The notes beneath the pieces are model-generated. The model made no database searches, was not told the origin of the DNA, and saw only the letters and a program-made list of their open reading frames with translations. A stretch of 38,888 nt of DNA from a virus: the UHGV virus genome UHGV-0098678. One strand, given 5' to 3'. Shown in pieces: positions 1,811 through 38,888 of this stretch (positions are counted from its first letter, which is position 1; every line of letters starts with the position of its first letter). The position numbers and the translations under genes were made by a program.

Positions 1811-2308
1811 TCAGTGCCACGATTTTTGCTTCTTCAGTGAATCGTATTGCTGTTCGCAGGATTCTCCTGCAATCCGATACTTTTCAGCCTCAGCTGCTGT
1901 TGCGTTGTAAACTCGGTTGCTTTCTTCAAGCATGTCGGCGAGCACACCGATGACCTTGCTGGCTGGCGTGCCAGTGGGGAAAGATCCGGTATAGTGTTCG
2001 GCGAGTCGCTTGGTTTTGTCAAGCTCGGCGCGCAGGCTGTCAGCAGCGGCATTAGCATGCTCAGCATCAACACGCGCCACATCGATACGGGACTGTGCTT
2101 CACGTTCAATTTGTGTTTTCTCCTGATCACGTTGTGACCTGGCCTTATCATCAGCCTGTTTCTGATCTTCCTGTGCCTGCGCATACCCGGCGTCGTACTG
2201 ACGACTGCCGTGTGCATTCCAGGCTACAACTCCTGATATGACCAGAACAGCAAGCATCGCCATGATAACCAACTGTTTCCAGTATGCTTTTGCGAATGCC
2301 CAGATCAT
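1811..2308 (-). CDS. Rz-like inner-membrane spanin (i-spanin)
   Basis: Immediately downstream of the endolysin with ATGA stop/start overlap at 2305-2308; N-terminal TM segment (LVIMAMLAVLVISGVVAW) followed by charged coiled-coil; harbours an embedded lipoprotein ORF in another frame. Confidence 0.65.
   Translation of the reverse strand: MIWAFAKAYWKQLVIMAMLAVLVISGVVAWNAHGSRQYDAGYAQAQEDQKQADDKARSQRDQEKTQIEREAQSRIDVARVDAEHANAAADSLRAELDKTKRLAEHYTGSFPTGTPASKVIGVLADMLEESNRVYNATAAEAEKYRIAGESCEQQYDSLKKQKSWH
1834..2082 (-). CDS. Rz1-like outer-membrane lipoprotein spanin (o-spanin), embedded in Rz
   Basis: Alternative frame inside Rz: MWRVLMLSMLMPLLTAC with lipobox LTAC followed by a proline-rich segment (APSLTKPSDSPNTIPDLSPLARQP). 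Start codon choice is uncertain and there is no strong SD. Confidence 0.4.
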   Translation of the reverse strand: MWRVLMLSMLMPLLTACAPSLTKPSDSPNTIPDLSPLARQPARSSVCSPTCLKKATEFTTQQQLRLKSIGLQENPANSNTIH

Positions 2309-2934
2309 ACCGCCAGCACCTTACTGGCAGTGATGTACCGCGCGCGCCGGTCGTCGATGCCGTTCCGGCCACCATTGATAATCAGAGTTACACGTGCAAT
2401 ATCGCCGGTATACTTCATGCATCCTTTGCTGGCAAAGAACCACGCCGCGCTACGAGCCGCGTATTCGTCCTGCGCCAGCAGTTCAGGACTCTCCAGCAGG
2501 TCAACCTTAAGACCGTTTCCACAGTCACGATAGTTATTCAAACCGGTAATCTGGATAAGTCCGCGACCACGGTAATTCCAGCCATCACCAGAGGCATTGT
2601 TACCCATGCGTTTGCTGTACACCAGATTTGCGATCGCGCGCTGGCGCTCAAGTGGCAATGGTGGCTCACCAGCACGGCGGCCCAGTGCGTTAGCCTGTCC
2701 CTGGGTGAGACGCCCAGCCCGAACGAAGTTAGCCAGTCCGGTGACGCTGTAGTTGAAATTTTCCTGCAACCGGTTGAAGCCACCAGACTCATGCCCGACC
2801 TGAGCAATAAACATTGCCTGATCTTCGGGTTTGCTGATACCAAACTCTTTCATCGCAGAAGTTATATGCGAGAACCAGCGAGCGGCCAGCGCCTCGCTAA
2901 TACCAGCAGCTCGCTGGAATTGTTTAATCTCCAT
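2305..2934 (-). CDS. endolysin, glycoside hydrolase family 19 (chitinase-like) type
   Basis: ATG at 2934 (MEIKQF...); the longer track ORF to 3165 is an upstream extension overlapping the holin. Motif FIAQVGHESGGF resembles the GH19 catalytic signature; position between holin-like genes and Rz. Confidence 0.75.
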   Translation of the reverse strand: MEIKQFQRAAGISEALAARWFSHITSAMKEFGISKPEDQAMFIAQVGHESGGFNRLQENFNYSVTGLANFVRAGRLTQGQANALGRRAGEPPLPLERQRAIANLVYSKRMGNNASGDGWNYRGRGLIQITGLNNYRDCGNGLKVDLLESPELLAQDEYAARSAAWFFASKGCMKYTGDIARVTLIINGGRNGIDDRRARYITASKVLAV

Positions 2935-3232
2935 GTTTAGACCTCGATATTTTGAAAATATGAACAACGTTACCGCGTGTTTTAATAACCGCGGCAAGCA
3001 TGACAGCGTTGATAATGACCTCAGATAAATCCACAGCCATTGGCGTGCGTAACCAGATTGCATAGACGACACGAACAGGAATACTTGCCGCAGCAACAAT
3101 AAGGAAATAAGCAAGCCACCCTCCCCATCTTCGATGTTGAGAGCCGTTACGCCGGAATGTGACAACGCGAATTGCTATGCCAGTACAAATAACTGCATTG
3201 GTGATAAGCAAAAAAAACTCATGCGTTACCAT
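2924..3232 (-). CDS. holin-like membrane protein (holin or antiholin)
   Basis: 102 aa with 2-3 predicted TM segments; ATG at 3232 with GGGGAG upstream; directly precedes and overlaps the endolysin start. Confidence 0.5.
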   Translation of the reverse strand: MVTHEFFLLITNAVICTGIAIRVVTFRRNGSQHRRWGGWLAYFLIVAAASIPVRVVYAIWLRTPMAVDLSEVIINAVMLAAVIKTRGNVVHIFKISRSKHGD

Positions 3233-3623
3233 CGTCTTTTCTCCCCGGAATTAACTCGCGTGGATTATCGGAACGGTGATAGAGCCAGATGCCAATACGC
3301 ACGGCGACAATTGCTGACACGAATGCGCCTGCAGAGAAAACAATCCCTTTTTCAAAAGAGTCCTGCGTGATGGTAGGGATCAGGCTGGCTATGCCGATAA
3401 GAATTGATGCTGCTGGTTTGTAAAAGAGAAGGCCGCAAAGAAAGCTGAGCATCGACAGGAGCACCCGGCGACGGATGGGGTACTCTACTGCAGAGGTAAC
3501 AAAAATTACCGCCCCAGCCAAAGCCCCTAAAGCAACCTCCGGAGGGACACCTGCAATAACCGCAGCAAGAGAACTAACACTAAGCCACTGATTTGAAGTT
3601 TCATTGGTTAGTTGGAATGACAT
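3219..3623 (-). CDS. holin-like membrane protein
   Basis: 134 aa with several hydrophobic helices (LAAVIAGVPPEVALGALAGAVIFV, ILIGIASLIPTI, FSAGAFVSAIVAVRIGIWLY) and a charged C-terminus; first gene of the lysis cassette after the tail fiber. Confidence 0.45.
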   Translation of the reverse strand: MSFQLTNETSNQWLSVSSLAAVIAGVPPEVALGALAGAVIFVTSAVEYPIRRRVLLSMLSFLCGLLFYKPAASILIGIASLIPTITQDSFEKGIVFSAGAFVSAIVAVRIGIWLYHRSDNPRELIPGRKDDGNA

Positions 3624-3695
3624 AACGAAACCCGTTTATTTGCAAACACCCTGCTTCAGGAAAAGTATACCGCGCAACAACACACCATTTACGGT

Positions 3696-6158
3696 TCAAT
3701 TCCCTGTTAATTGCAAAACTTGCTCTTCCAGCTTTTTAACCCTGCGTCTCATCATCGCAGATTCCAGAATCAGAGCCTCTTCATAACGGATACCGTAACA
3801 TTCACCAGCCTCGACGGCTTCGCGTACCAGAACCTTTGTCTGTATAAGTGGGTAAACTCCTGCAGAATGCTCTTCTTCCGTCACATCCCTGTATTCTGCC
3901 GGGGTCTCATTCCACTTGTCATAACAGATAAATGCCAGTCGTGACACATCTATGCCTTCATTCTGAAATACACTGATAACATGCTGCGCAACTGCACCAA
4001 AGTGCCATCTTGCTCCGTCTTTACCTTTCACTTCGATCCTGTCAAGGTACTGGTATGAAACCCATTCCACTCTTTCCCATGCGTCCAGTATTTTCTCATC
4101 AATAACCTCTGGAGCAGTCTTGAAACGCGCATCGGACAGCACCGTAAACGCTGACTGGGTAAATCCCCCCGACCATGCACGACCAGCCAACCCAAGAGAA
4201 TAAGTATTCGTTGTCGATGGTGTCATGGCTGAATCAGAAAACTGTATATATTCTGAATTTCCAGTAGATATTCGAATATTTCCATTTATTAGCGACATAG
4301 TGCCTTTAGTATTATCACTATTGAATAATTTCAATTGCGAACTTATACCGCCTCCCACAGCCAGAGATACATCGCCTTCAGCAAGCATTCTGAATTTATC
4401 TGCAGAAACAAGCGTCTGGTTAGCAAGGTTAAAATATTTAACCCACCATTCAAAACGCCCTGACATAGTCCCAACGTACTGACCAAGCGCAGGGACGTGA
4501 ACAACATTGCTATTTGTAGTGCCGTCTATACTGGAAATACCAGTCACCGCTGATGCAGAACTCAGAATATTATTTCTGTCACCCGGATGTTTAATTTCAA
4601 CAAAGTTCCTGATACACCCTTCCTCGAAGGTAACCACGCCGGAAGAACTATACATGGGGAATATTGACGCATAATTACTGCGTGCAGCATCTAAGAAACG
4701 AATGGTTGTAGATGTCTGCAGATCTCCTGATTCATTTTTCCCATCACACCCAGTCATTAGAATATTACTGGCAATATTATTATTTCCATGAACGGTGACT
4801 CCGTGCGCCTGCTTTGCGTCCGATTCAGAGTAATCAACCAGCACATTCGAAATCAGGTTACCAGTCCCCTTGCCAACAACTACTGCGGCGTATTTTGGGT
4901 TGTTAGCCATTACACTGCTAATGATATTATTCGTTGGGGCAGTTTCCGTCTCAGTTCCATTGTAAACAACGTGCTGACACTCTTCACCAATAACATTGCT
5001 GACAATGTTATATTTTGCTGCTGTTTTAAGTTCCACTGCACCAAACTGAGGATAATTTCTGGCTATCACACCATCAATTAGCGTATTTTGCGATGAATCA
5101 AAAAGCACACAACCTGCTTTTTTATTATTTGCGAACCCTAAATACTCTCCTCTTATATCTCTAACAATGTAACCTGACGGAATACCATTATTCGGATAAG
5201 CGATCAAGCTAAATCCTGTTCCTCGCGTATTTGTAAATCTGATATTTTTAACCGATACATCATGGCCACCTGAAAATGACACCTGGTGTCCCTGCACACT
5301 ATCATCTGATTTATTTCCCATAATTGTTAGCGTACTAAGCATGCCACCATCGGGCATGTTAAAAACCAGATGATTACCATCTCTGTCATACTGTTTTATC
5401 GTTCCCCCACCTGTTCCGTACAAGCCACAACGTGAAAGAGAAACTAAAGATGTATTGAATACCCCTTCCGGAACAAAAACACTGCTAAACGAATGTAATG
5501 ATTTTGTAAAAGCATCCTTGTTATCATTTAAGATTCCATTTTGAGCTCCAAAATCCTTAATGCTGACACCATCACGCATCTTATCCTGGAACGTTCTGTA
5601 TACCGCTCCAGAACCATACTGAATAAACCAACCAAAACCACCAATAACTCCGGCGATTGCAGCATCGACATAATTACGCATTGAGCGATTATTTACAGCG
5701 TCCTGCTCAAGTGATGGATCGGCAAGGTTAGATATTCTGTTTTGCTTTGCATCGTAATATTTTGCAAGCAAAGATGGTTTCATCAATGCACGTCTGAACC
5801 ACCCAAAACATCGCTGGATCAGCATCGTCAGGTAGTCAAATGCATCCTCATGAACTTCGGGGAAAAATTTTCCCTGATTGCGAAGATCAGTCTCCTGCAC
5901 CACATCAAGCACACGCTCTATCGTGATTCGCCAGCCAGCAGCAAGCGGCGACGGAAGAACCACTGCACCGCCACTATAAGTTCCCGCCCCTGTTACCGTA
6001 TAACCAGCATCCAGCACTAGTTTTGTAACGTTACCGTTAAGGTCAGACACCTGAACAACCAGGTCGGATTTTTTGAAAATACGGAAGGTATACGGAAATG
6101 ATGTCGTAACGCCGTTACCTGTGTATTCGTTGTGGTCAACTTCGGTTGAGACCGTCAT
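3696..6158 (-). CDS. tail fiber / tailspike with T7 gp17-like N-terminal adaptor, central beta-helix-like region and C-terminal S74-type intramolecular chaperone domain
   Basis: 820 aa. N-terminus (YTGNGVTTSFPYTF ... NRISNLADPSLEQDAVNNRSMRNYV) matches the T7 tail-fiber N-terminal domain pattern; C-terminus contains SDARFK and a coiled-coil tail typical of self-cleaving chaperone domains; SD GGAG 8 nt upstream of ATG 6158. Confidence 0.75.
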   Translation of the reverse strand: MTVSTEVDHNEYTGNGVTTSFPYTFRIFKKSDLVVQVSDLNGNVTKLVLDAGYTVTGAGTYSGGAVVLPSPLAAGWRITIERVLDVVQETDLRNQGKFFPEVHEDAFDYLTMLIQRCFGWFRRALMKPSLLAKYYDAKQNRISNLADPSLEQDAVNNRSMRNYVDAAIAGVIGGFGWFIQYGSGAVYRTFQDKMRDGVSIKDFGAQNGILNDNKDAFTKSLHSFSSVFVPEGVFNTSLVSLSRCGLYGTGGGTIKQYDRDGNHLVFNMPDGGMLSTLTIMGNKSDDSVQGHQVSFSGGHDVSVKNIRFTNTRGTGFSLIAYPNNGIPSGYIVRDIRGEYLGFANNKKAGCVLFDSSQNTLIDGVIARNYPQFGAVELKTAAKYNIVSNVIGEECQHVVYNGTETETAPTNNIISSVMANNPKYAAVVVGKGTGNLISNVLVDYSESDAKQAHGVTVHGNNNIASNILMTGCDGKNESGDLQTSTTIRFLDAARSNYASIFPMYSSSGVVTFEEGCIRNFVEIKHPGDRNNILSSASAVTGISSIDGTTNSNVVHVPALGQYVGTMSGRFEWWVKYFNLANQTLVSADKFRMLAEGDVSLAVGGGISSQLKLFNSDNTKGTMSLINGNIRISTGNSEYIQFSDSAMTPSTTNTYSLGLAGRAWSGGFTQSAFTVLSDARFKTAPEVIDEKILDAWERVEWVSYQYLDRIEVKGKDGARWHFGAVAQHVISVFQNEGIDVSRLAFICYDKWNETPAEYRDVTEEEHSAGVYPLIQTKVLVREAVEAGECYGIRYEEALILESAMMRRRVKKLEEQVLQLTGN

Positions 6159-6262
6159 GTTAAATCTCCAGATAGTCGCAGCACCCGTTGCGCCGCATAT
6201 CTGGTTATTCTATTACCCAAAAAACCATATATGGATAGAAAGACTGTGAATATGAATAGATA

Positions 6263-6277
6263 TTACCTTTCAGGTAA
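6263..6277. promoter_or_regulatory. 15-bp palindrome TTACC-N5-GGTAA (putative repressor operator)
   Basis: TTACCtttcaGGTAA, extended palindrome aTTACC...GGTAAt at 6262-6278; about 40 bp upstream of the LexA box and antirepressor gene; same core as the site at 24915. Confidence 0.5.
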
Positions 6278-6314
6278 TTTGCAAAACGTGCTGGATAGCA
6301 AACAAATTATTTGA

Positions 6315-6334
6315 TACTGTATAAATATACAGTT
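6315..6334. promoter_or_regulatory. LexA (SOS) box
   Basis: tACTGTataaatatACAGtt: CTGT-N8-ACAG with AT-rich spacer, matching the gammaproteobacterial LexA consensus TACTGTATATATATACAGTA; ends 6 nt before the ATG at 6340. Confidence 0.8.
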
Positions 6335-6339
6335 ATTGC

Positions 6340-6612
6340 ATGGAGAAGATTAAGATGCAGCAGTATCACTATCCACTGGAAGAGGGATTTACCGAAAGGA
6401 TTCACACGCCGGGAGGCGTCAGGTCACTGGTGGAGGGATCGCACTTGATGAAATTACTCCGGGATCTCGATAAGGATGGATTTAATGTCGATGGCCCACT
6501 TGCCGAACTGACTGCACTGATTAACTACGTCACCAGCTCACAGATGTCTATGCAGGATCTGCAAACACATCTCGACTATTGTGCCGAACAATTACGAAAA
6601 CAAACCAGATAA
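6340..6612 (+). CDS. small LexA-controlled antirepressor-like protein (start 6340 or 6355)
   Basis: 90-aa ORF directly behind the LexA box; about 75 aa align with the C-terminal domain of the adjacent Bro-N protein (LMKLLRDLDKDGFNVDGPLAELT vs LMNLLNQLQDDGHDVSGAAAELT; QDLQTH vs RDIQTH). Confidence 0.55.
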   Translation: MEKIKMQQYHYPLEEGFTERIHTPGGVRSLVEGSHLMKLLRDLDKDGFNVDGPLAELTALINYVTSSQMSMQDLQTHLDYCAEQLRKQTR

Positions 6613-6643
6613 GGTTTGAAATTACCAAATGGAGTGCTTATAT

Positions 6644-6658
6644 TTACCTTTGCGGTAA
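6644..6658. promoter_or_regulatory. 15-bp palindrome TTACC-N5-GGTAA (putative operator)
   Basis: TTACCtttgcGGTAA inside a 19-bp perfect palindrome atTTACCtttgcGGTAAat (6642-6660); itself flanked by inverted repeat GGAGTGC/GCACTCC. Confidence 0.45.
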
Positions 6659-6751
6659 ATTTACATTGCACTCCTCTTGTGCCATAGTAATCAGGCACTG
6701 GCAAAATCCAGTGCCGGGATTGGTCTCCCGGATTACTACAGAGGCACATAT

Positions 6752-6771
6752 GCCGCATAAGCGGTTTTTTT
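6752..6771 (+). terminator. weak rho-independent terminator candidate
   Basis: Short GC stem (CCGC ataa GCGG) followed by seven T residues, about 140 nt downstream of the small antirepressor ORF. Confidence 0.3.
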
Positions 6772-6925
6772 ATGTGTAAAGCGCACCTATTCTATGGTGG
6801 GCTGTGTGGGGGCACCGAAAGGTGCGCCGGGTTCCTTTGTAGCCGGTAAGACCAACTCTGCACAGTTCACCACCATCTGATTGGTCTCAGCGGTGGTGAT
6901 TAACCTAACTACAAAGGTGATCGCC

Positions 6926-7618
6926 ATGAATACCAAACCTTCCATCTTTTCCTTTGAGTCATCCTGCCAGATCCGTATGTTCATGATTGACGGAGAACCT
7001 TGGTTTGTCACCAAAGATGTGTGCAATGCTTTGAATATTGATGTTACACAAGCGAGAAAACTTGATAAAAAAGGCTGGAACAAAAAGGGGCTGTATTCAA
7101 TACAGACCCCTGGTGGAATACAAGAACTATCCATCGTTTCAGAATCAGGTCTCTACATCCTTATTCTGCGTTGCAAAGAGGCAATGACAGAGGGAACGAG
7201 AGCATTCAGATTTCTTGAATGGGTTACAGGTGAGGTTCTTCCTCAGATCCGCCGCACCGGAAGTTACATTAAAAACTCGCTCCCGCAGGAAGAACGCATA
7301 AAGATGGTTGCCGACCAGGTAGCCAACGCCACAGCATCAGCAGTGATGCAGGCAATGAAGATAGAGAACAAAACCTACAGTGCCCCACTGAAGCCCGGCT
7401 ACCGCAGCCTGATTCACTCGCCGTCTGGTGTTCTCGGCCTGACGGAGAACTCACTGCTGATGAATCTGCTGAACCAGTTACAGGACGACGGGCACGACGT
7501 ATCGGGCGCGGCGGCGGAGCTGACCACCATGTTCTGCTACATCGTTGGTGTGAGCAAATGCCTGCGTGATATCCAGACGCACGCGGAGTACATCAACGAC
7601 AAGGCAGGGTTCTTCTGA
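6926..7618 (+). CDS. Bro-N domain antirepressor
   Basis: ATG at 6926 with SD AAAGGTGA; N-terminus FSFESSCQIRMFMIDGEPWFVTKDVCNALNI matches the Bro-N/antirepressor fold; C-terminal domain is paralogous to the small ORF at 6340-6612. Confidence 0.75.
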   Translation: MNTKPSIFSFESSCQIRMFMIDGEPWFVTKDVCNALNIDVTQARKLDKKGWNKKGLYSIQTPGGIQELSIVSESGLYILILRCKEAMTEGTRAFRFLEWVTGEVLPQIRRTGSYIKNSLPQEERIKMVADQVANATASAVMQAMKIENKTYSAPLKPGYRSLIHSPSGVLGLTENSLLMNLLNQLQDDGHDVSGAAAELTTMFCYIVGVSKCLRDIQTHAEYINDKAGFF

Positions 7619-7684
7619 CGGGCGGCGGCACAGGGATGTGCCTTTAAAATAATCATTGGCGATGTGATGTAGATTCGCGTAATA

Positions 7685-7699
7685 TTACCTTAAAGGTAA
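7685..7699. promoter_or_regulatory. 15-bp palindrome TTACC-N5-GGTAA (putative operator)
   Basis: TTACCttaaaGGTAA immediately upstream of the SD (AGGAGG) and ATG of the 55-aa ORF at 7712. Confidence 0.45.
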
Positions 7700-7711
7700 A
7701 GGAGGCGCGAT

Positions 7712-7879
7712 ATGACAGCGTTGAAAAATCGTACTCAGCACAATGAACAAGCCAAGCAATGCTGGGATGTCATTGGAAAAGTTATGCTTGGTCGCGCAAG
7801 CAAAGAGCGCGACAAGGATATGGTTTACCAGACAGGAACATCTTTTAGCGACTTCAAGGCGGCATTTCGCTCCAAATAG
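7712..7879 (+). CDS. hypothetical small basic protein (55 aa)
   Basis: Not in the ORF track (under 60 aa); ATG 7712 with strong SD AAAGGAGG; translated by hand as MTALKNRTQHNEQAKQCWDVIGKVMLGRASKERDKDMVYQTGTSFSDFKAAFRSK; stop TAG 7877-7879. Confidence 0.45.
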   Translation: MTALKNRTQHNEQAKQCWDVIGKVMLGRASKERDKDMVYQTGTSFSDFKAAFRSK

Positions 7880-7899
7880 AAGCACATCAGGAGTTTTCC

Positions 7900-8343
7900 T
7901 TGAAGTTTAACATTAGAATATCTAATAGTTTTCTACATGGGGAAAGCAACACCCCTTTCGCTGTAGACGGACCTTTCCTTACTGATGATGAAATAAAAAT
8001 CATACAAAGGTTTTTAGAGGATGTTGCCAATGGAAGGGCGCTTGTTGGAAAAAACAAGCCATCGTGGGTTGATGATAACCATGATAAAATTCCCGGCTCA
8101 GACAATTATGAGCAAGAGAATTATTGGCATTATCATTGTGGGCCAACATGGTATCCAAACACATTTAAGAATTATACCATTAACTTAAATTTCAACCCTG
8201 GCGGAATGCATTCTAATGAATGCATTCATTATGCAAAAAATGATAATGAAATTGTCATTGTTGGATTTTCAAGAGAACACATACCTTTCCTTTCATCAGA
8301 TGGAAACAACAATCCGCTTTTTAATGATGAAGAAGAAGAATAA
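7900..8343 (+). CDS. hypothetical protein with acidic C-terminal tail (moron)
   Basis: TTG start at 7900 with AGGAG 6 nt upstream; 147 aa, low-GC coding sequence, C-terminus ...NDEEEE; followed directly by a terminator. No recognisable family. Confidence 0.55.
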   Translation: MKFNIRISNSFLHGESNTPFAVDGPFLTDDEIKIIQRFLEDVANGRALVGKNKPSWVDDNHDKIPGSDNYEQENYWHYHCGPTWYPNTFKNYTINLNFNPGGMHSNECIHYAKNDNEIVIVGFSREHIPFLSSDGNNNPLFNDEEEE

Positions 8344-8365
8344 GCCCGCGCTGCGGGCTTTTTTG
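8343..8365 (+). terminator. rho-independent terminator
   Basis: Stem AGCCCGC/GCGGGCT with 3-nt loop followed by TTTTTT, starting at the stop codon of the 7900-8343 gene. Confidence 0.7.
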
Positions 8366-8436
8366 TGGACGAAACAAAAGTCAGTGCTACACTCATTGAC
8401 GCCACATTGAGGTGGCTTATAGATGGAAATTTCACA

Positions 8437-8598
8437 ATGAAAAAAGCATTTGCTGCACTGTTCGTTTTGTTGTCTCTGGTAGCTTCAACTCAGGCCTTTG
8501 CCGGTCGTTGTCAGCACGACAGCGACACTGCTGCTGACGGCTCCCGCTGCGGTGGGCGTTCTGCGGATTCCCGTCCGGGCGGCGGTGGCATTCGTTAA
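8437..8598 (+). CDS. small secreted Cys-containing Gly/Arg-rich peptide (53 aa precursor)
   Basis: Internal ATG 8437 of the track ORF 8365-8598 gives MKKAFAALFVLLSLVASTQAFA (signal peptide) followed by a roughly 30-aa mature part with two Cys; weak SD. Confidence 0.35.
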   Translation: MKKAFAALFVLLSLVASTQAFAGRCQHDSDTAADGSRCGGRSADSRPGGGGIR

Positions 8599-8627
8599 AA
8601 ACAAGGCCGCGAAAGCGGCCTGTTTGA
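8597..8627. terminator. bidirectional rho-independent terminator
   Basis: A-rich tract, stem GGCCGC gaaa GCGGCC (GNRA-type loop), then TGTTTG; lies between the convergent genes ending at 8598 (+) and 8628 (-). Confidence 0.6.
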
Positions 8628-31966: not shown

Positions 31967-31981
31967 TTACCCAACAGGTAA
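31967..31981. promoter_or_regulatory. 15-bp palindrome TTACC-N5-GGTAA (putative operator)
   Basis: TTACCcaacaGGTAA, 62 bp from the previous site, in the intergenic region downstream of the P-like gene. Confidence 0.45.
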
Positions 31982-32018
31982 TTATCAAGGCGTAAAAAAA
32001 TGCGCTATCGCGCTGGTA

Positions 32019-32819
32019 TTACTTGATAAATCCTGCCGCCTTTCCCCGCCTGTATTCCTCCATCAGCCACTGCGCCGGTGTTATTCCCCCAAGGGTGGCG
32101 GCGTTAGGCATGCACCCGAAACTTCGCCCTGGTGGATGGTAAACGTCTCTCCCTGTGTCCGGAGGCGTACTCATGGGTTCTGGCTTTGCCTGTATGCTGA
32201 TCACCGGATCGGGTATCTGCTGTCCGGAAGCCACCTTTTTCGCCCAATCATCGAGCAGCCTGCGCGCGTGTTTCTCAACCTCTATCTCGCTAAGCTGGCG
32301 CTGATACATTGCACGGCGGGTATCACATACGACCCAGTACATAACCGGATGCCGCCACGGGAATCTTTCGGGACCACCAGGATATAAACTTTTTTCCTTG
32401 CTGTACCGGTGAAACTCCGTCATCACATCGTCAATGGTGACGCCAAGAACCATCTTGCTGTCTTTGCACCACTTGATGAATTGCCCTGGCGACGGCCAGA
32501 ACGGAGATTCACTGGCGCGGGCGTGGCGCATACCAGCAGAAACCTGTTCACGGGTTCGGATCCCCCCTTCGGCAAACGCAGCAATCCACTGCTGTTTTGC
32601 AGCAACTTCCTGCTCTGGCGTCTTCAGGTTGGTTACCACTGCCGCCGGAAACAGTTGTTTCAGCTGTTTGAAAAGGGCATCAACAAGCCTCTCTGCTGAC
32701 ATGTTCACCACGTTGTCATTGTTGGTGTACTGATGCTCATAACCTGACATGCGAGAAAGGGCTTCTCCGTCACGGTTTTGTATCGCGGTAAAAACGTTGT
32801 TCACAAGAAATCCTCCCAT
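32019..32819 (-). CDS. replication protein, lambda P-like (helicase loader)
   Basis: Block QLFPAAVVTNLKTPEQEVAAKQQWIAAFAEGGIRTREQVSAGMRHARASESPFWPSPGQFIKWC aligns with lambda P as recalled (FPASL...RRQWVLAFRENGITTMEQVNAGMRVARRQNRPFLPSPGQFVAWC); start overlaps the O-like gene end. Confidence 0.7.
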   Translation of the reverse strand: MGGFLVNNVFTAIQNRDGEALSRMSGYEHQYTNNDNVVNMSAERLVDALFKQLKQLFPAAVVTNLKTPEQEVAAKQQWIAAFAEGGIRTREQVSAGMRHARASESPFWPSPGQFIKWCKDSKMVLGVTIDDVMTEFHRYSKEKSLYPGGPERFPWRHPVMYWVVCDTRRAMYQRQLSEIEVEKHARRLLDDWAKKVASGQQIPDPVISIQAKPEPMSTPPDTGRDVYHPPGRSFGCMPNAATLGGITPAQWLMEEYRRGKAAGFIK

Positions 32820-33616
32820 GCTTCAGGGCTGTTCCAGTGCGGAACGTTGTTATCAGGTAATGTTGATTGCTTCTGTCTGCTAATCTGCAGCCGCCTTGCC
32901 AGCTTCTGCTCCCACTGTGCCTGATGGTATGCCTTACCCTCAGCCATCCAGTAAATTCTGAACTCTGCAAGTTCCTGTGCCGTTGGCAGACTGTCCAGGT
33001 AGATCCCCTGCAAGGAGCTTTTCCGAAGAAAGTCATCTGATGGCTGCCATTGTTCATGCATGACAAATTTGCCTAATTGCCCTGGCCCACCAGGAGGAAC
33101 AAAGTTATTCATCACGGCGTTGTTTGCGCCGGGGTCATGAGGCACAGAATCCCCGTTTTTTGTCCTGCTCTCCCTCTCTTGGTTAAATGACTGGTTATAT
33201 GACTGGTTCTGGATCCCGTTTTTGGGATCATTCAACATCCCGTTTTTGGGATCATTCAACATCCCGTTTTTGGGTATATTCCCGTTTTCGGTAACATTAC
33301 CGTTTTCGGGTTCATTGCCCCCCTCCCGGTTGCCTTTAATGTTCCCGTTTTTGGTTATATTAAGAGAGAAAACCCGCACTCTTTTCGTCGCTCCCTTTCT
33401 CTCTCCGGTATCTGAAATAAGCCCCATTTTCATGAGCGATATAAGCCCGGCCTGCACGGTTTTTTTATTCAGGCAAGTGTCTTTAACGAGGCGTTCTATG
33501 CTGGGGTAGCAGAGGTTATATTCATCGGCTCTGTCAGCCATCGAGAGCAGTATGAGCTTTAATGACGAGCTACCTGGATCTGTCTCCCAGGCCCAATCTG
33601 TTGCATGTCTGCTCAT
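32801..33616 (-). CDS. replication initiator, lambda O-like (HTH N-terminus, repeat-encoded linker, C-terminal P-interaction-like domain)
   Basis: 271 aa; SD GGAG; N-terminal HTH-like segment (LKLILLSMADRADEYNLCYPSIERLVKD); central Asn/Gly repeats encoded by DNA iterons; positioned directly upstream of the P-like gene. Confidence 0.6.
   Translation of the reverse strand: MSRHATDWAWETDPGSSSLKLILLSMADRADEYNLCYPSIERLVKDTCLNKKTVQAGLISLMKMGLISDTGERKGATKRVRVFSLNITKNGNIKGNREGGNEPENGNVTENGNIPKNGMLNDPKNGMLNDPKNGIQNQSYNQSFNQERESRTKNGDSVPHDPGANNAVMNNFVPPGGPGQLGKFVMHEQWQPSDDFLRKSSLQGIYLDSLPTAQELAEFRIYWMAEGKAYHQAQWEQKLARRLQISRQKQSTLPDNNVPHWNSPEAWEDFL
33213..33354. repeat. iteron array (putative replication origin) inside the O-like gene
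   Basis: Six copies of CCCGTTTT(T/C)GG beginning at 33215, 33239, 33263, 33281, 33300, 33344 (spacing 24, 24, 18, 19, 44 bp), two as perfect 24-bp units ATCCCGTTTTTGGGATCATTCAAC; an additional TGACTGGTT direct repeat at 33188-33208. Confidence 0.6.
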
Positions 33617-33631
33617 GATTAATCTCCGCTA

Positions 33632-33832
33632 TCAGCTTGAATATTGTGGGGAGGAATTAATCATGATCTGCTTAATCTCTGCCCTGATGCGACGGTTTGA
33701 TTCCATGGTGCACTCAACACAGTGTCCGTTGTAAACCCAGCGTTCACTGTCATGTCCGTGCTTACATGGTTTTCCGGTGTAGTAGCGTTTAAGTCCGCGC
33801 TTTGCGGCATCAATACGTGTAATGATTTCCAT
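33632..33832 (-). CDS. hypothetical zinc-ribbon protein (CII-position gene)
   Basis: ATG 33832 (track ORF starts at upstream TTG); 66 aa with CKHGH...HCVEC motif; located between the Cro-like gene and the O-like gene. Confidence 0.4.
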   Translation of the reverse strand: MEIITRIDAAKRGLKRYYTGKPCKHGHDSERWVYNGHCVECTMESNRRIRAEIKQIMINSSPQYSS

Positions 33833-33912
33833 GGTAAGCCCTGTTATTAGTATTTGGATTACGGTTATTTTGTGCTGACACAAAAAAAAGATCAACCAGA
33901 TTTGGTTTTTTA

Positions 33913-33982: not shown

Positions 33983-34213
33983 TCATGAGTAGAAGAAGTA
34001 TGCCAGTTCTGCTTTTGAGCGCAGCCATTGTCTTGTTTTACAGGCTTTAAAAAGCCCATTCATCAATACTTTACCTGGCATTTTGCGCTTACCTGTTAAG
34101 TGAGTCTGGATATAGTGACTCGTCGTTCCGGCTTCCTGTGCGAAGGCTTCACGCTCATCCGGAGTAAGTGCAAGCCAGTGCTTTTTGAAATCGAAATGTC
34201 CGTTATCGCTCAT
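33983..34213 (-). CDS. Cro-like HTH regulator
   Basis: 76 aa, first gene of the - strand early operon divergent from the repressor; HTH-like segment AFAQEAGTTSHYIQTHLTGKRKMPG. Confidence 0.5.
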   Translation of the reverse strand: MSDNGHFDFKKHWLALTPDEREAFAQEAGTTSHYIQTHLTGKRKMPGKVLMNGLFKACKTRQWLRSKAELAYFFYS

Positions 34214-34280
34214 AGCTATTGCCTGATATTTATTTCAGATAATAAATATTCACCCATAAGGTAACAAAAATCAAGGATAG

Positions 34281-34295
34281 TTACCTATGGGGTGC
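34281..34295. promoter_or_regulatory. imperfect operator TTACC-N5-GGTGC in the repressor/Cro intergenic region
   Basis: TTACCtatggGGTGC, centre 17 bp from the adjacent perfect site. Confidence 0.4.
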
Positions 34296-34297
34296 AT

Positions 34298-34312
34298 TTA
34301 CCTGTTGGGTAA
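34298..34312. promoter_or_regulatory. operator TTACC-N5-GGTAA in the repressor/Cro intergenic region (OR-like)
   Basis: TTACCtgttgGGTAA between the divergent Cro-like (start 34213) and repressor (start 34368) genes. Confidence 0.55.
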
Positions 34313-34367
34313 TATTGCTTTAAATTGAATCATCTACTGATTCATATATGAGGCGATTTTCCAGAAA

Positions 34368-34952
34368 ATGAAAAGTATCCAGGACGTCCGCAGGCAAAAT
34401 CTCAACGACTTGATCGACCGTGAATTCAATGGTGTTCAGACGCGGATGGCAGAAAAACTTGGAACTCAGGCAAATCTGGTAAACCGCTGGGCTCTTGGCA
34501 AGAAGGTTATCGGCGACCAGGTTGCACGAAAAATTGAAGCTGCCGCCAATAAACCCCGTAACTGGCTTGATATTGATCGTTCGCTTTCTCAGGAGGGTTT
34601 TCAGCCTGTCGGACCAAGCGACATTGGTCAACTGGCGGCTCACAACCTGGAACGCTGGATGAGCGAAAGCCGCGACCTTTCAACACAGGGAAAACTTCAC
34701 CGCGCATCCGGCGTAGCCCAGGTGACAATCAGCCGCCTGTTAAACAATGAGGTCAGCGTTTCCATTTCCACCCTGGAGAATGTTGCATCCGCATTCGGGC
34801 GTCATGGCTATGAATTACTGATTCACCCGCACGACCCTGCGACCATCAACTATGATCGCTCGCGCTACGCATTGTTACCCGAAACCGAGAAAGCAAAGAT
34901 CGAAAGTTACATTGAATTTGTCATCAACCAGAACGAAAAAAGCAAACAATAA
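34368..34952 (+). CDS. phage repressor-like protein with two HTH domains and no S24 peptidase domain
   Basis: 194 aa; first HTH around QTRMAEKLGTQANLVNRWALGKK, second around LHRASGVAQVTISRLLNNEVSVSISTLENVASAFG; no Ala-Gly/Ser-Lys autocleavage module; sits between operator clusters like lambda cI. Confidence 0.55.
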   Translation: MKSIQDVRRQNLNDLIDREFNGVQTRMAEKLGTQANLVNRWALGKKVIGDQVARKIEAAANKPRNWLDIDRSLSQEGFQPVGPSDIGQLAAHNLERWMSESRDLSTQGKLHRASGVAQVTISRLLNNEVSVSISTLENVASAFGRHGYELLIHPHDPATINYDRSRYALLPETEKAKIESYIEFVINQNEKSKQ

Positions 34953-35105: not shown

Positions 35106-35258
35106 ATGCAGTGGAAAATCATCAACGGTTGGTACTGCGTTACTGCATGCGGATTCATGAGCTGGAAGTTCCGCACCTTACAGGAAGGCATTAAGTGGGC
35201 TTTCGTCAGCAAAGAAGCTCGCGATGTGGCCAACGATAACGAGATATGGGAGGGCTGA
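35106..35258 (+). CDS. hypothetical 50-aa protein, first ORF of the pL-like operon
   Basis: Hand-translated: MQWKIINGWYCVTACGFMSWKFRTLQEGIKWAFVSKEARDVANDNEIWEG; GAGG about 9 nt upstream; stop is 2 nt before the next ATG. Confidence 0.3.
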   Translation: MQWKIINGWYCVTACGFMSWKFRTLQEGIKWAFVSKEARDVANDNEIWEG

Positions 35259-35260
35259 TA

Positions 35261-35560
35261 ATGAACGTTAATCAGCAGAAAAATCTTCAAAAAATCATGC
35301 TGGCATTCGACAAGGACTACCGCCTGTCAGAACAGCTATATGACCGACAAGTTGAACTGATTGAGAGCATCCGACTTCATCAACTGTCCTCAACTTTCGA
35401 CGTTGTAACAGGCAAAGGCGTTCGTCAGGAAGTACTGGAGGCTGCTAAAGACAGCCCTGAGTTCGAAGAACTGATGGATGCCTATCGGCGAGAGGCAATG
35501 GCAATTATCGCCCGCTGGGATCTGGCGGATCAGCTTGATGGGCAGAGGGACGCGGCATGA
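35261..35560 (+). CDS. hypothetical protein
   Basis: ATG 35261 with SD GGGAGGG (track ORF starts 5 codons earlier); 99 aa, helical; ATGA overlap with the exonuclease gene. Confidence 0.45.
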   Translation: MNVNQQKNLQKIMLAFDKDYRLSEQLYDRQVELIESIRLHQLSSTFDVVTGKGVRQEVLEAAKDSPEFEELMDAYRREAMAIIARWDLADQLDGQRDAA

Positions 35561-36456
35561 TGCGGAACGCTGGAATCATGGATAGAACAAAATACATCGG
35601 AGGAAGCGATGTTGCAGGGATTCTTGGAATTAGCCCATGGCGCACCCCGCTTGAGGTTTATCTGGATAAGGTCCAGCCACGTGTCAAACCAGTAGACCCA
35701 AGCAAGCAGAAAGTTTTCACGCGTGGCCAGCGTATGGAGCCATACGTAATAGACCTGCTTTCTGAGGAAACAGGGATGGAAATCGTTCATCGCGGAAACC
35801 GCTATATCCACCGTGATTACGATTTTATTGCAGCTGAGATCGATGCAGAAGCAGCGTCAGGCGAGAACATTGAGATCAAAACAGTTAGTCCGTTCAAAGC
35901 CAAAGAATGGGGAGAAATCCAGACAGATGCAATTCCTGTGCATTACACGGCCCAGGCCATGCACGGGTTGATGGTTACAAACAAACAGGTATGCGTTTTC
36001 GGTGTGCTTATCGGTGGCGACGACTTCCGAATCTATCGGGTTGAGCGTGATGAAGAAACTATCCAGGCGATCTTAGAAAAAGAAATCGCTTTCTGGGACC
36101 GAGTGAAAAATCTTAACCCGCCGGAAGCTACCAGCGTAAGCGATGTATCGCTGATGTTTGAGAAAGATGCCGGGACAAGTATCGAGGCTGACGGAAAGGC
36201 ACTCGCACTATTCAACAATCTACGAGACATGAAATCACGCAGAAAATCACTGGAAGAAGAAATAGCTATATCAGAAGAGAAGCTGAAGATGTACATGCAA
36301 GAGCACTCAGTCCTGACCCTGGACGGAAAGCCGCTCTGCACATGGAAATCTCAGATCAGCAACAGATTCGACCAGAAGCTATTCCAGTCAGTACACCCTG
36401 AGTTATTCGAAAAATTCAAAACAACAACGACACAACGCGTCTTCAGAATGAAGTAA
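35557..36456 (+). CDS. YqaJ-like viral recombinase-associated exonuclease
   Basis: N-terminal YIGGSDVAGILGISPWRTPLEVY matches the YqaJ/lambda-Exo-like nuclease start; paired with a downstream RecT gene. Confidence 0.75.
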   Translation: MMRNAGIMDRTKYIGGSDVAGILGISPWRTPLEVYLDKVQPRVKPVDPSKQKVFTRGQRMEPYVIDLLSEETGMEIVHRGNRYIHRDYDFIAAEIDAEAASGENIEIKTVSPFKAKEWGEIQTDAIPVHYTAQAMHGLMVTNKQVCVFGVLIGGDDFRIYRVERDEETIQAILEKEIAFWDRVKNLNPPEATSVSDVSLMFEKDAGTSIEADGKALALFNNLRDMKSRRKSLEEEIAISEEKLKMYMQEHSVLTLDGKPLCTWKSQISNRFDQKLFQSVHPELFEKFKTTTTQRVFRMK

Positions 36457-36465
36457 GGAGAAAAA

Positions 36466-37488
36466 ATGTCTATCAATGCACTTAAGGCAGCGGCTACCGG
36501 TAACCAAGTTGCACATCATAATGAGAAACCAACAACTCTGGCCGGACTTCTGGCAGACCCAAAAATTAAAGCTCAGATGGCTTTGGCACTTCCAAAGCAC
36601 ATGACAGCAGACCGTCTGGCGCGCATAGCAACCACAGAGATCAGAAAGGTTCCAAAACTTGCATCATGCGACCAAGCCAGCTTCCTGGGGGCAATTATGC
36701 AATGTGCCCAATTGGGTCTTGAACCAGGCGGAGCTCTTGGACACGCTTACCTGATACCGTTCGACAAACGCCAGAAAGTAAATGGAAGATGGGAAACCGT
36801 ATCTACAGAAGCACAGCTGATTATCGGCTATCGCGGAATGATTGACCTTGCCCGCCGCTCTGGGCAGATCCTGAGTATCTCGGCTCGTACCGTACATACA
36901 AACGACAAATTCAGCTACTCATACGGCCTGGAAGAAACGCTCGAGCATTTACCTTGCGAAACAGGTGACAGCGGAGAATTAACGCACGTTTACGCCGTTG
37001 CACGACTGAAAGATGGCGGAGTCCAATTTGAAGTTATGAGCCGGGCAGACGTTGAGAAAGTTCGTGCACTGAGCAAAGCCGGTAGCAGTGGCCCATGGGT
37101 TGATCACTTCGATGAGATGGCTAAAAAAACAGTAATTCGCCGACTGTTCAAATATCTTCCTGTTTCTATTGAAATGCAGAAGGCTGTTGTTATGGATGAG
37201 CGCGCTGAAGCTGGACTTAGCCAAGATAACGCAGCTGTTATCACTGGTGAATATTCCGTAGTTGACGATGAGCGTCAACACCTGTCGCCAATTTCAGATT
37301 CAGAACGAGAAGAAGCTCGAGAATATATCATCGCGATACTTAATAGCCTGGATCCATCTGCTGAAGATGCAAAAACGATGTTCAAGCGCGCTGAAAATGA
37401 AATTAACACCATGGCTGAAAAGCTCGGTGATGAATATCACCAAAAATTCATGATGACGCTTAACGATATGCGTCCAGAATTCGAGTAA
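36466..37488 (+). CDS. recT: RecT-family single-strand annealing protein
   Basis: 340 aa; strong SD TAAGGAG; conserved RecT-like core (...LIIGYRGMIDLARRSGQ...VYAVARLKDGG...KKTVIRRLFKYLP...). Confidence 0.8.
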   Translation: MSINALKAAATGNQVAHHNEKPTTLAGLLADPKIKAQMALALPKHMTADRLARIATTEIRKVPKLASCDQASFLGAIMQCAQLGLEPGGALGHAYLIPFDKRQKVNGRWETVSTEAQLIIGYRGMIDLARRSGQILSISARTVHTNDKFSYSYGLEETLEHLPCETGDSGELTHVYAVARLKDGGVQFEVMSRADVEKVRALSKAGSSGPWVDHFDEMAKKTVIRRLFKYLPVSIEMQKAVVMDERAEAGLSQDNAAVITGEYSVVDDERQHLSPISDSEREEAREYIIAILNSLDPSAEDAKTMFKRAENEINTMAEKLGDEYHQKFMMTLNDMRPEFE

Positions 37489-37537
37489 CCACCACCGCGG
37501 CGCCACGTGCGCCGCACTGCAACCAAGAGAGGTATTC

Positions 37538-37786
37538 ATGAAAGGTGCATTAGGTAAGAAAGAACTCCTGGCGGTGGTGCCACTGTCATGGAGCACTATC
37601 GACCGTATGGAGCGCGCAGGGGAATTTCCTAAACGCTGGTATATCACCGATAAACGCTGCGCATGGAACCGTGATGAAGTTGAGCGTTGGCTTGATGAAC
37701 GTCAGGCAGCAAGCCCGGCAGAGTTCCAGGGTAAAAAGCCTCCTGTTCAGCAACGTGTATATCGTCCCGTGAGCAACGCTGCATGA
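37538..37786 (+). CDS. AlpA-family phage transcriptional regulator / excisionase-like protein
   Basis: 82 aa; LLAVVPLSWSTIDRMERAGEFPKRWYITDKRCAWNRDEVERWL fits the AlpA winged-HTH pattern. Confidence 0.55.
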   Translation: MKGALGKKELLAVVPLSWSTIDRMERAGEFPKRWYITDKRCAWNRDEVERWLDERQAASPAEFQGKKPPVQQRVYRPVSNAA

Positions 37787-37895
37787 GTGCGCTGCTAAGG
37801 CACTGGAGCAAATGGTCAGGATGGTACTTATTCCTGGCCTCTGTTTCAGCATGGCTTTATCTGCTGGCATTAATTTTCAGAGAGGGTTGGATTAA

Positions 37896-38195
37896 GTGAG
37901 AAAGTTAAGCCGACTTGAAAAATATCACATGAATAAGGTTTCAATGCGCAGTCCGTCAAAGATTGTCGCCGTTACTCCTGCGGCGATAGAGATCGAAAAA
38001 CGCGCGATTGAAAGAGAGAAAAAAGGGCAATTCCGCATTGCCGCTCACCTTTGGCTTCAGTGTATGGATGTTGCTTCTGGTGATGTTGAACGTGCAAGGA
38101 TCGCGGTTCGCAGGGACCAATGTATCACAAAAGGTAACGGCCTTCGCCGTGGCGACTATAGCGGTATAGGATGTTGCGGGGTGGTTTATGACTAA
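37896..38195 (+). CDS. PerC-like transcriptional activator candidate
   Basis: 99 aa with GTG start; segment FRIAAHLWLQCMDVASGDVERARIA resembles the PerC family as recalled (low confidence). Confidence 0.35.
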   Translation: MRKLSRLEKYHMNKVSMRSPSKIVAVTPAAIEIEKRAIEREKKGQFRIAAHLWLQCMDVASGDVERARIAVRRDQCITKGNGLRRGDYSGIGCCGVVYD

Positions 38196-38838
38196 GAAAT
38201 ACACACTAATCTATGCAGATCCACCCTGGGTATACCGGGACAAAGCCGCAGATGGTAATCGCGGTGCCGGTTTTAAATATCCGGTTATGAGTGTGATGGA
38301 TATCTGCCGCCTTCCTGTGTGGGATTTGGCCGATGAAAACTGTCTGTTGGCCATGTGGTGGGTGCCAACACAACCACTCGAAGCACTAAAAGTTGTTGAA
38401 GCCTGGGGATTCCGTCTGATGACCATGAAGGGATTCACGTGGATAAAATGTGGTAGTCGACAACCAGATAAACTGGTTATGGGTATGGGTCACATGACTC
38501 GCGCCAATAGTGAAGATTGCCTGTTTGCAGTAAAGGGAAAACTACCTCCGCGCATTAATGCAGGGATCGTTCAGTCATTTACCGCACCGCGGCTTGAGCA
38601 TTCAAGAAAACCAGATGTCGTTCGTGAAAAACTTGTGCAATTGTTAGGCGATGTTTCTCGCATTGAACTGTTCGCCCGCCAGTCGTCTCATGGCTTCGAT
38701 GTTTGGGGTAATCAGTGCGAAGACCCGGCAGTGCAACTACACCCTGGATACGCGTTGGATATTGCCAGATTAACAAATGCATTCAGCAATGCTCCGCTGT
38801 CACCAACAGACAACCAGGGGCGGGAGCGTGCAGCATGA
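38188..38838 (+). CDS. MT-A70 family N6-adenine DNA methyltransferase
   Basis: N-terminal YADPPWVY (DPPW catalytic motif) plus downstream MT-A70-like blocks; overlaps the upstream gene by 8 nt. Confidence 0.8.
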   Translation: MTKKYTLIYADPPWVYRDKAADGNRGAGFKYPVMSVMDICRLPVWDLADENCLLAMWWVPTQPLEALKVVEAWGFRLMTMKGFTWIKCGSRQPDKLVMGMGHMTRANSEDCLFAVKGKLPPRINAGIVQSFTAPRLEHSRKPDVVREKLVQLLGDVSRIELFARQSSHGFDVWGNQCEDPAVQLHPGYALDIARLTNAFSNAPLSPTDNQGRERAA

Positions 38839-38888
38839 ACCGGGCATCACCAGCAGATTTAAGGAAATGCCTTGAAACTGCAAACATG
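38835..38888 (+). CDS. 5' end of an unidentified ORF (partial, runs off the window)
   Basis: ATG 38835 overlapping the methyltransferase stop (ATGA); only 18 codons visible. Confidence 0.2.
   Translation, partial: MNRASPADLRKCLETANM

Follow-up and report, generated by a model that had tools for sequence, protein, structure and literature searches.

Integration site, virion genes and lysogeny switch of an epsilon15/phiV10-type prophage in the viral genome UHGV-0098678

The prophage, its integration site and its relatives

The DNA of UHGV-0098678 analysed here (38,888 nucleotides, referred to below as the window) contains a host flank with the genes yfgG, yfgH and yfgI and, next to it, a prophage whose features are listed in Table 1. 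Results of our analysis leave little doubt that this element is a temperate podovirus prophage of phiV10/epsilon15 type (Uetakevirus-like), integrated at the 3' end of guaA by a tyrosine integrase. An earlier note on the same DNA, made from the sequence without database searches, had described it as a mosaic temperate phage in which lambda-like early genes drive a T7-like virion module. The virion genes named in that note, all on the minus strand, are present in the list of open reading frames (ORFs) at the sizes it gave, and Pfam matches bear out its account of the early half: a helix-turn-helix repressor, a divergent gene of 76 amino acids (aa), replication genes, an exonuclease with RecT, and AlpA.

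Table 1. Features of the UHGV-0098678 prophage with the basis of their assignment (positions in the window)
Feature	Position	Strand	Basis
Attachment (att) core, prophage/host junction beside yfgI, left prophage end	1707-1723	-	Exact match to the published ZX5 attB/attP core ATTGAGTGGGAATGATT
Lysis cassette	1811-3623	-	Two holin-like genes (3219-3623, 2924-3232), GH19 endolysin (2305-2934), Rz-like/DUF2514 (1811-2308)
Tailspike (820 aa): particle-binding N-terminal domain, beta-helix, C-terminal S74 chaperone	3696-6158	-	Pfam Peptidase_S74, Beta_helix
Rep operator upstream of ant, TTACCTTTCAGGTAA	6263-6277		TTACC-N5-GGTAA motif (13 copies in the window)
LexA box at the ant promoter, CTGTATAAATATACAG (perfect consensus)	6317-6332		Precedes the ant ATG by 23 bp
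ant, encoding a small antirepressor (85 aa if counted from the second ATG)	6355-6612	+	PDB 5d50_E 'Anti-repressor protein', phmmer E 1.7e-47, ~90% identity
isrK-like small RNA ending in a terminator	6695-6771	+	Rfam RF01394, 74.7 bits (gathering 50)
C4-type antisense RNA	6790-6877	+	Rfam RF01695, 78.6 bits (gathering 45)
Second antirepressor with a Bro-N domain and, fused to it, an Ant-like C-terminal domain	6926-7618	+	Pfam Bro-N E 2e-13
Cargo ORFs: 147 aa (phrog_5954) and a small secreted-looking peptide	7900-8598	+	147-aa ORF absent from phiV10, epsilon15 and EC.W1-9
283-aa protein with a signal-like N-terminus, encoded at the end of the variant internal cassette	8628-9479	-	phrog_6118
Internal/ejection protein, T7 gp16 family (1129 aa)	9481-12870	-	phrog_342 E 2.7e-235, profile positions 192-1227
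Internal protein with lytic transglycosylase segment, gp15 position (915 aa)	12870-15617	-	phrog_1044, phrog_992
Internal virion protein, T7 gp14 family (188 aa)	15617-16183	-	Pfam PF24072 T7_gp14, 31.6 bits (gathering 27); phrog_418
Internal virion protein, gp13-like (154 aa)	16183-16647	-	phrog_308 E 9.2e-63, also the PHROG of T7 gp13
Tail nozzle, gp12 position (823 aa)	16647-19118	-	PDB 8ck1_A 'Tail Nozzle' of phage Carin-1, phmmer E 9.5e-218; phrog_376 'tail protein'
Head-to-tail adaptor, gp11-type (201 aa)	19118-19723	-	PDB 8ck1_E 'Connector Protein' E 8e-26
Capsid accessory genes: gp10-like staple (109 aa), 114-aa protein, Bbp16-family cement (145 aa)	19723-20880	-	
Major capsid protein (330 aa), epsilon15 gp7 family	20932-21924	-	Pfam PF20911 E 6e-149; NCBIfam NF045672 MCP_gp7_epsi_15
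233-aa protein	21933-22634	-	phrog_458; 'protease' label in databases, scaffold-like sequence
Portal (559 aa)	22924-24603	-	Pfam PF12236 E 1.6e-187; PDB 8ck0_A E 5.7e-179
tRNA-Arg(TCT), antisense to the late genes	25252-25328	+	ARAGORN, Rfam; also in phiV10 and EC.W1-9
Terminase large, TerL (491 aa)	25993-27468	-	Pfam Terminase_2, phrog_2; 99% identity to phiV10 (p01/p02 terminase pair)
Terminase small, TerS (224 aa as longest ORF)	27465-28139	-	99% identity to phiV10 (p01/p02 terminase pair)
Early-right genes	28180-33895	-	DnaT-like (32801-33616), lambda P (32019-32819), DUF1064, Eae-like, Ead/Ea22, DUF551, N15 gp46-type regulator (28180-28521)
Immunity region	33983-34952		76-aa Cro-position gene (33983-34213, -), operators at 34250 and 34298, Rep (34368-34952, +)
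Early-left operon	35246-38838	+	104-aa ORF, YqaJ-type exonuclease, RecT, AlpA-type regulator/excisionase, PerC-like protein, MT-A70 methyltransferase
Other TTACC-N5-GGTAA sites	6644, 7685, 24915, 28079, 31905, 31967, 33913, 34250, 34298, 35010, 35072		

The 17-bp att core of Uetakevirus ZX5, published for that phage at guaA (PMC9782041), occurs in the window a single time, and phage similarity begins exactly at its first position, 1707. The phage DNA starts at this core, upstream of position 1811 that had been noted as its beginning, and the prophage also extends past the other end of the window. Relatives integrated at this site have, beyond the methylase gene, a DUF1382 gene, then the integrase gene and then guaA, which indicates that the window ends approximately 1.5 kb before the end of the prophage. 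The element is thereby predicted to sit between yfgI and guaA and to be cut by the window just before the integrase, its guaA side being known from the relatives. Like Uetakevirus members, the prophage uses the ZX5 core and the 3' end of guaA for integration, which can be followed in the window on the yfgI side.

The relationship to known phages is evident in the whole length of the element. In a megablast comparison with phage genomes, the free phage EC.W1-9 covers 91% of the stretch 9000-29000 with 97.5% identity. The coverage is 58-63%, with about 98% identity, for phages phiV10, ZX5, phiv142-3, TL-2011b and PAS61 and for O157 typing phages 9 and 10, and Epsilon15 and Enterobacter phage Tyrion match at 76-82%. 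Both window ends gave matches to this same group of phages; over all query stretches, phiV10 and other Uetakevirus isolates cover 58-64% with 97-98% identity. In a gene-by-gene tblastn comparison, the products of nearly all genes proved 90-100% identical to proteins of phiV10 or EC.W1-9. Nucleotide identity multiplied by coverage, calculated one-way for the phage part, is 76% for EC.W1-9, 58% for phiV10, 37% for epsilon15 and 0% for T7. Both phiV10 and epsilon15 are classified in the Uetakevirus genus, outside Autographiviridae, and the genome-wide nucleotide similarity and synteny with members of this genus are accompanied by its characteristic head proteins, namely a capsid protein of epsilon15 gp7 type, a gp10 staple and a Bbp16-type cement protein. 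The presence of adaptor, nozzle and tailspike genes, together with the absence of tape-measure, tube and sheath genes, suggests a short-tailed particle. Matches to 64 Synechococcus phages, obtained in the DNA search, are explained by the tRNA-Arg gene alone.

No evidence contradicting the phiV10/epsilon15-type assignment was found, but several points weigh against this reading or narrow it. The similarity to phiV10 (58%) is below the strict criterion of 70%, by which the prophage would be grouped with the unclassified EC.W1-9 and not with phiV10, and its formal placement in a genus therefore needs the full genome. The integrase and the right-hand att site are beyond the window, which bears on the completeness and inducibility of this particular copy. 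The cassette of large internal proteins differs from that of both type phages, phiV10 and epsilon15. As regards the parallels with T7 discussed below, the structural model of the adaptor is of moderate confidence only (pLDDT 72), and the nozzle is equated with T7 gp12 by gene position, its close homologue being the Carin-1 nozzle. Finally, the binding properties ascribed below to Rep, LexA, Ant and C4 RNA are deduced from homology and sequence.

The location of the integrase and the second att site outside the window, as well as the insertion of two or three cargo ORFs (7900-8343, 25527-25949), might also be expected of a defective phiV10-type remnant that is no longer able to form particles. 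We regard this as unlikely. All conserved genes are full length as compared to those of phiV10 or EC.W1-9, the same structural genes are carried at 97.5% identity by EC.W1-9, which was isolated from sewage as a free phage, and the same-site relatives have an intact integrase gene directly beyond the position at which the window ends.

Virion genes and their relation to T7

Twenty T7 proteins, including RNA polymerase, DNA polymerase and primase-helicase, were compared with the window by tblastn and phmmer, and nothing significant was found except for endonuclease I. Recent descent from T7 was rejected on the basis of this lack of significant pairwise matches (endonuclease I, with an E value of about 1e-4, excepted). 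The exception is the DUF1064 protein encoded at 31557-31901 (-), which weakly resembles T7 endonuclease I, the product of gene 3 (tblastn E 6e-4, phmmer E 8e-5), and gives the only pairwise signal to T7. The earlier statement that no phage RNA polymerase is encoded in the window holds: the best tblastn match of T7 gp1 has an E value of 1.6, phmmer gave nothing useful, the long ORFs of the window are all assigned to other functions, and the relatives have only the DUF1382 gene and the integrase gene beyond the point that corresponds to its end. Replication genes of Autographiviridae type, namely those of gp4 primase-helicase and gp5 DNA polymerase, have no significant match in the window either. 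Members of Autographiviridae are obligately lytic and have no integration module, whereas the prophage has an att core, a repressor and an antirepressor, and its relatives have an integrase gene next to the position of the window end.

More sensitive comparisons reveal shared families or cross-matches between the prophage and T7: the portal (PF12236), gp13 (phrog_308), gp14 (PF24072), gp16 (phrog_342), the N-terminus of gp17 (phrog_1640/27277) and the fold of gp11. The portal and T7 gp8 are connected by reciprocal PHROG cross-matches (phrog_332, phrog_449). The AlphaFold 2 model of the adaptor matches first the connectors of Carin-1 and LME-1, and next the T7 gp11 adaptor (7box_M, E 1.9e-5, TM 0.51) and about 20 other adaptors of T7 type, with nothing else significant; the RefSeq record of epsilon15 likewise mentions that gp11 matches T7 tail tubular protein A by HHpred. 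The 188-aa protein bears the PGAP name 'virion core protein, T7 gp14 family'. T7 gp16 matches phrog_342 over positions 4-1227, and the 1129-aa protein is devoid of the first approximately 190 of these, which in T7 gp16 contain the transglycosylase families. Transglycosylase PHROGs are found instead at residues 243-395 of the 915-aa protein, the N-terminal half of which is 45% identical to phiV10 gp18. In the case of the tailspike, residues 1-166 match phrog_1640 and phrog_27277, the PHROGs that are also matched by residues 5-149 of T7 gp17, and the match to Pfam Phage_T7_tail (PF03906) is sub-threshold (E 0.0022). At the default cut-off Pfam missed the adaptor, the nozzle and the gp13-like protein, and at a relaxed one it returned only sub-threshold matches to Phage_T7_tail and Phage_T7_Gp13. 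A search of PDB sequences with the 1129-aa and 233-aa proteins gave nothing useful, and a literature search on the PDB codes 8CK0, 8CK1 and 8CJZ found no paper.

Other virion components belong to families different from those of T7, namely the capsid protein, the 233-aa protein as compared to gp9, the adaptor and nozzle in terms of their PHROGs, and the protein in the gp15 position. The capsid protein, the sole protein given a name in the NCBIfam scan, matches PDB entries 3j4u (E 1.2e-127) and 3j40 'gp7' (E 2.5e-84). It is thus of epsilon15 lineage, an outcome that the earlier note itself had named as refuting its placement of the virion proteins in the T7 family, and by this yardstick the placement fails. 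The capsid accessory genes are 93-97% identical to phiV10 p11-p13, and two of their products are named by PGAP 'capsid staple protein' and 'Bbp16 family capsid cement protein'.

As judged from these families, the virion is an old podovirus body plan shared with T7 and not a borrowed T7 module, and the relationship to T7 is an ancient one, apparent at the level of profiles or folds but not in pairwise comparison. A T7-like internal core in epsilon15 has already been noted in a review (PMC8954989). By analogy, the particle would comprise an epsilon15-type capsid with cement and staple proteins, a portal, a gp11-type adaptor and a nozzle, tailspikes would be anchored by their gp17-like N-terminal domain, and an internal core of gp13-, gp14-, gp15- and gp16-type proteins would be ejected to bridge the cell envelope.

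The alternative proposed in the earlier note, namely an unusual and recent mosaic, rare in enterobacteria, in which lambda-like regulation drives a virion module of the T7 family, is largely refuted, and we consider it very improbable. It accounts for the T7-type gene order from portal to fibre, for the remote homology of the portal, adaptor, gp13, gp14, gp16 and gp17 N-terminus, and for early genes of lambdoid type that are common to Shiga toxin (Stx) phages and P22-like phages. The order and the remote homologies were confirmed, but the position of the terminase genes and the capsid family do not follow the T7 pattern. There is neither pairwise similarity to T7 proteins nor any nucleotide similarity (0%), and the capsid, the adaptor, the nozzle and the protein in the gp15 position fall into families or PHROGs other than those of T7. 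Moreover, a named genus, isolates of which have been known since epsilon15, has this whole arrangement as its standard genome. Nor can it be called rare, as 527 of 5426 complete E. coli genomes (~10%) contain the yfgI/lysis-gene junction of this established lineage. A P22-like temperate podovirus, to which one could ascribe the tailspike, the antirepressor and the Ead/Eae-type early genes of an enterobacterial phage, is already refuted and next to inconceivable, given the portal of T7 gp8 type (PF12236), the capsid of epsilon15 gp7 type, the tail built of a gp11-type adaptor and a large nozzle, and the best whole-genome matches, which are all to phiV10/epsilon15-type phages.

The phiV10/epsilon15-type phages carry different sets of large internal proteins. 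In phiV10 and epsilon15 the cassette consists of phrog_992, phrog_1145 and phrog_684 proteins, and in the window and EC.W1-9 of phrog_1044 and phrog_342 proteins and the 283-aa protein; the latter has a 100% identical counterpart in EC.W1-9 and none in phiV10 or epsilon15. A third version is present in strain 2020S05-235. Thus, prophages that are nearly identical elsewhere have at least three versions of the ejection cassette at one and the same position (8628-15617 (-) in the window, 12543-19335 in L001, the phiV10 locus, and 9221-16653 in L006). At least 80% of the region 6200-16000 of the window, a region that takes in its version of the cassette, is present in 104 complete genomes.

The 233-aa protein encoded between the portal and capsid genes is labelled 'protease' or 'peptidase' in PHROGs, RefSeq and PGAP, and this label is probably wrong. 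Neither Pfam nor the PDB sequence search detected a peptidase domain in it, and its N-terminal half is of low complexity and rich in proline, aspartate, lysine and glutamate. These properties make a scaffolding protein, as assumed in the earlier note, the more likely assignment.

The repressor, two antirepressors and the early genes

Rep (194 aa) matches PDB 5d50_A 'Repressor' over its full length (E 3.5e-42). The structure 5D50 is that of the Rep-Ant complex of Salmonella phage SPC32H and is also named as the repressor match in the epsilon15 record. Only helix-turn-helix domains were found in Rep by Pfam, with no match to Peptidase_S24, the domain of lambdoid cI-type autocleavage; the earlier description of Rep as cI-like thus fails as regards its mechanism. 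On the other hand, the LexA/antirepressor switch proposed in the same note was confirmed by the consensus LexA box and by Ant, which is about 90% identical to 5d50_E. The box, which reads taCTGTATAAATATACAGtt, has counterparts at the equivalent position in phiV10, EC.W1-9, the AR_0086 prophage and epsilon15, where it lies upstream of the gp19/ant homologue. Exact CTGT-N8-ACAG matches at 20902 and 25444 were rejected as LexA sites, as they are located inside or beside coding sequence and have poor AT-rich spacers.

The motif TTACC-N5-GGTAA, which is that of the sites annotated 'repressor' in the RefSeq record of epsilon15, occurs in the window 13 times against 0.54 expected. Most of its copies are intergenic: they flank Rep, precede ant, lie on both sides of the second antirepressor gene and before the head operon, and are found near the start of TerS. 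One copy (28079-28093) is inside the longest TerS ORF, which starts with TTG at 28139. The annotated TerS of epsilon15 and of EC.W1-9 is shorter, with the operator located upstream of it, and hence the true start of TerS in the prophage is probably a downstream codon.

A passage in PMC7380047, citing Kim and Ryu 2013, describes how in Salmonella prophages the LexA-controlled Ant inactivates a non-cleaved repressor on SOS induction, and Ant was found to break the Rep tetramer (PMC9638917). In the prophage studied here homologues of both Ant and Rep are present, with ant preceded by a LexA box and with a Rep devoid of the self-cleavage domain, so that its LexA/antirepressor switch is, by homology, a known and structurally solved system. 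In this model, lysogeny would be maintained by the non-cleavable Rep, with TTACC-N5-GGTAA as its binding site in the immunity region and also at several promoters elsewhere, among them the ones that serve the head operon and the antirepressor genes. Upon DNA damage LexA would be removed from the SOS box and Ant would be synthesised, which, as shown for the SPC32H homologues, binds Rep and takes it off DNA, and this would start the lytic programme.

The second antirepressor gene is preceded by the isrK-like RNA and the C4-type RNA. Residues 145-222 of its Bro-N protein product are 42% identical to Ant. The leader of the Bro-N gene has complementarity to three segments of C4 (9, 8 and 7 nucleotides), one of which spans the Shine-Dalgarno sequence, and this count was reached in 7 of 2000 shuffles. 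A C4 RNA upstream of an antirepressor gene and complementary to its leader and ribosome-binding site is the arrangement of P1 immI. The isrK/C4 pair is also present in phiV10 (L001, 20278-20463) and EC.W1-9, and absent in epsilon15. The C4 RNA would thus be able to pair with the ribosome-binding site of the Bro-N/Ant-like antirepressor gene, and we infer an RNA-controlled second antirepressor of P1 immI type, aimed at the same Rep. In the case of ZX5, overexpression of the repressor and the Bro-N antirepressor and induction by mitomycin C have been reported (PMC9782041).

These observations may be combined with those on the ejection cassette in a tentative proposal, to which we give slightly less than even credence: in the phiV10 branch, this prophage included, one repressor might receive two inducing inputs, from the SOS-controlled Ant and from the Bro-N::Ant-like protein silenced by C4/isrK, and the ejection cassette might be exchanged as a module, here with a protein of the T7 gp16 family. 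If so, the exchange of the cassette could alter the way in which the internal core is built. Neither the two-input circuit nor the cassette exchange was found in the papers on these phages that were consulted.

The regulatory half was described in the earlier note as lambdoid. This is correct for the layout and for lambda P, RecT/exonuclease and AlpA; the replication initiator, though, is DnaT-like and not lambda O. The lambda P protein belongs to PF06992 (E 1.5e-56), and the initiator consists of HTH_36 and DnaT domains. The early-right genes, assigned by Pfam and phiV10 matches, include pieces common to many lambdoid and Stx phages. In the early-left operon the exonuclease and RecT are 90-93% identical to those of epsilon15, and for the rest of the operon the identity is to phiV10 (97-100%). 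The early genes have a lambdoid-type arrangement and would be transcribed by the host polymerase.

Of the remaining genes, those of the lysis cassette are 80-98% identical to phiV10 p27-p29, with the Rz-like protein at 52%, and their PGAP names come from identical E. coli genes. The 147-aa cargo ORF is located at 7900-8343 (+), and another cargo ORF, of 140 aa (25527-25949 (+), phrog_4846), is absent from phiV10, epsilon15 and EC.W1-9. At these two spots related prophages carry genes of YafO toxin or of the Gp49 family. Searches of Pfam and PADLOC with the ORFs of 147, 140, 283 and 77 aa gave no match. The tRNA-Arg(TCT) gene overlaps an 83-aa ORF (25258-25509 (-)) that is annotated as gene p04 in phiV10, and one of the two is probably not real.

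Comparison with known systems

Previous work has described the lineage of the prophage as well as its integration site, the repressor/antirepressor switch and the T7-like internal core, and a prophage of this kind is already known and ordinary. As a discovery it carries little weight, the same prophage type being annotated in hundreds of E. coli genomes. A more general indication is that, when a temperate prophage of enterobacteria shows a T7-like gene order, the first reading should be epsilon15/phiV10-like and not a rare hybrid. The modular replacement of ejection proteins, the putative RNA-controlled second antirepressor and the probably wrong 'protease' label may be of interest to specialists.

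With T7 the prophage shares the gene order from the portal, through the (scaffold), capsid, adaptor, nozzle and gp13/14/15/16-type internal proteins, to the fibre, and similar protein sizes. It differs from T7 in that its terminase genes precede the portal gene instead of standing at the end of the module, its capsid is of another family and its head has cement and staple proteins that T7 is devoid of, and the transglycosylase is a part of the protein in the gp15 position and not of gp16. It is also temperate and lacks RNA polymerase, DNA polymerase and primase-helicase.

In the control of lysogeny, the closest parallel is phage SPC32H (PDB 5D50/5D4Z), with which it shares an Ant protein of about 90% identity, a full-length Rep homologue without an autocleavage domain, and a LexA box at the ant promoter. 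Rep has diverged (E 3.5e-42), and details of its operators may differ; in addition, the prophage has a second, presumably RNA-controlled antirepressor with an Ant-like domain. The latter resembles P1/P7 immI and the IsrK-AnrP system of Gifsy-1 (PMC4825925) in the presence of C4 and isrK RNAs, recognised by Rfam, directly upstream of the antirepressor gene. It differs in that the antirepressor is a Bro-N::Ant-like fusion, and no gene similar to icd was seen.

The genome is syntenic with that of epsilon15, with 81% protein identity of the portal, 88% of the nozzle, 85% of the adaptor, 95% of TerL and 90-93% of the exonuclease and RecT, but only 43% of both the capsid protein and Rep. Unlike the prophage, epsilon15 carries O-antigen conversion genes and has neither the Bro-N antirepressor nor the isrK and C4 RNAs. 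The similarity is closest to phiV10 and its relatives EC.W1-9, vB_EcoP_ZX5, phiv142-3, TL-2011b and PAS61, the gene order of which is identical throughout and most of the proteins of which are 90-100% identical to those of the prophage. Common to them are also the att core at guaA, the tRNA-Arg gene, Rep, Ant, the LexA box, the operators and the isrK/C4/Bro-N unit. What distinguishes the prophage from phiV10 is the absence of an O-acetyltransferase gene after the tailspike gene, the receptor-binding part of the tailspike itself, of which only the first 20% matches that of phiV10, and the cargo ORFs of its own. Additionally, phiV10 encodes a fused RecET, whereas the prophage has an exonuclease and RecT of epsilon15 type (35557-37488 (+)), whose position between phiV10-like flanking genes is, by all appearances, a module exchange within the genus.

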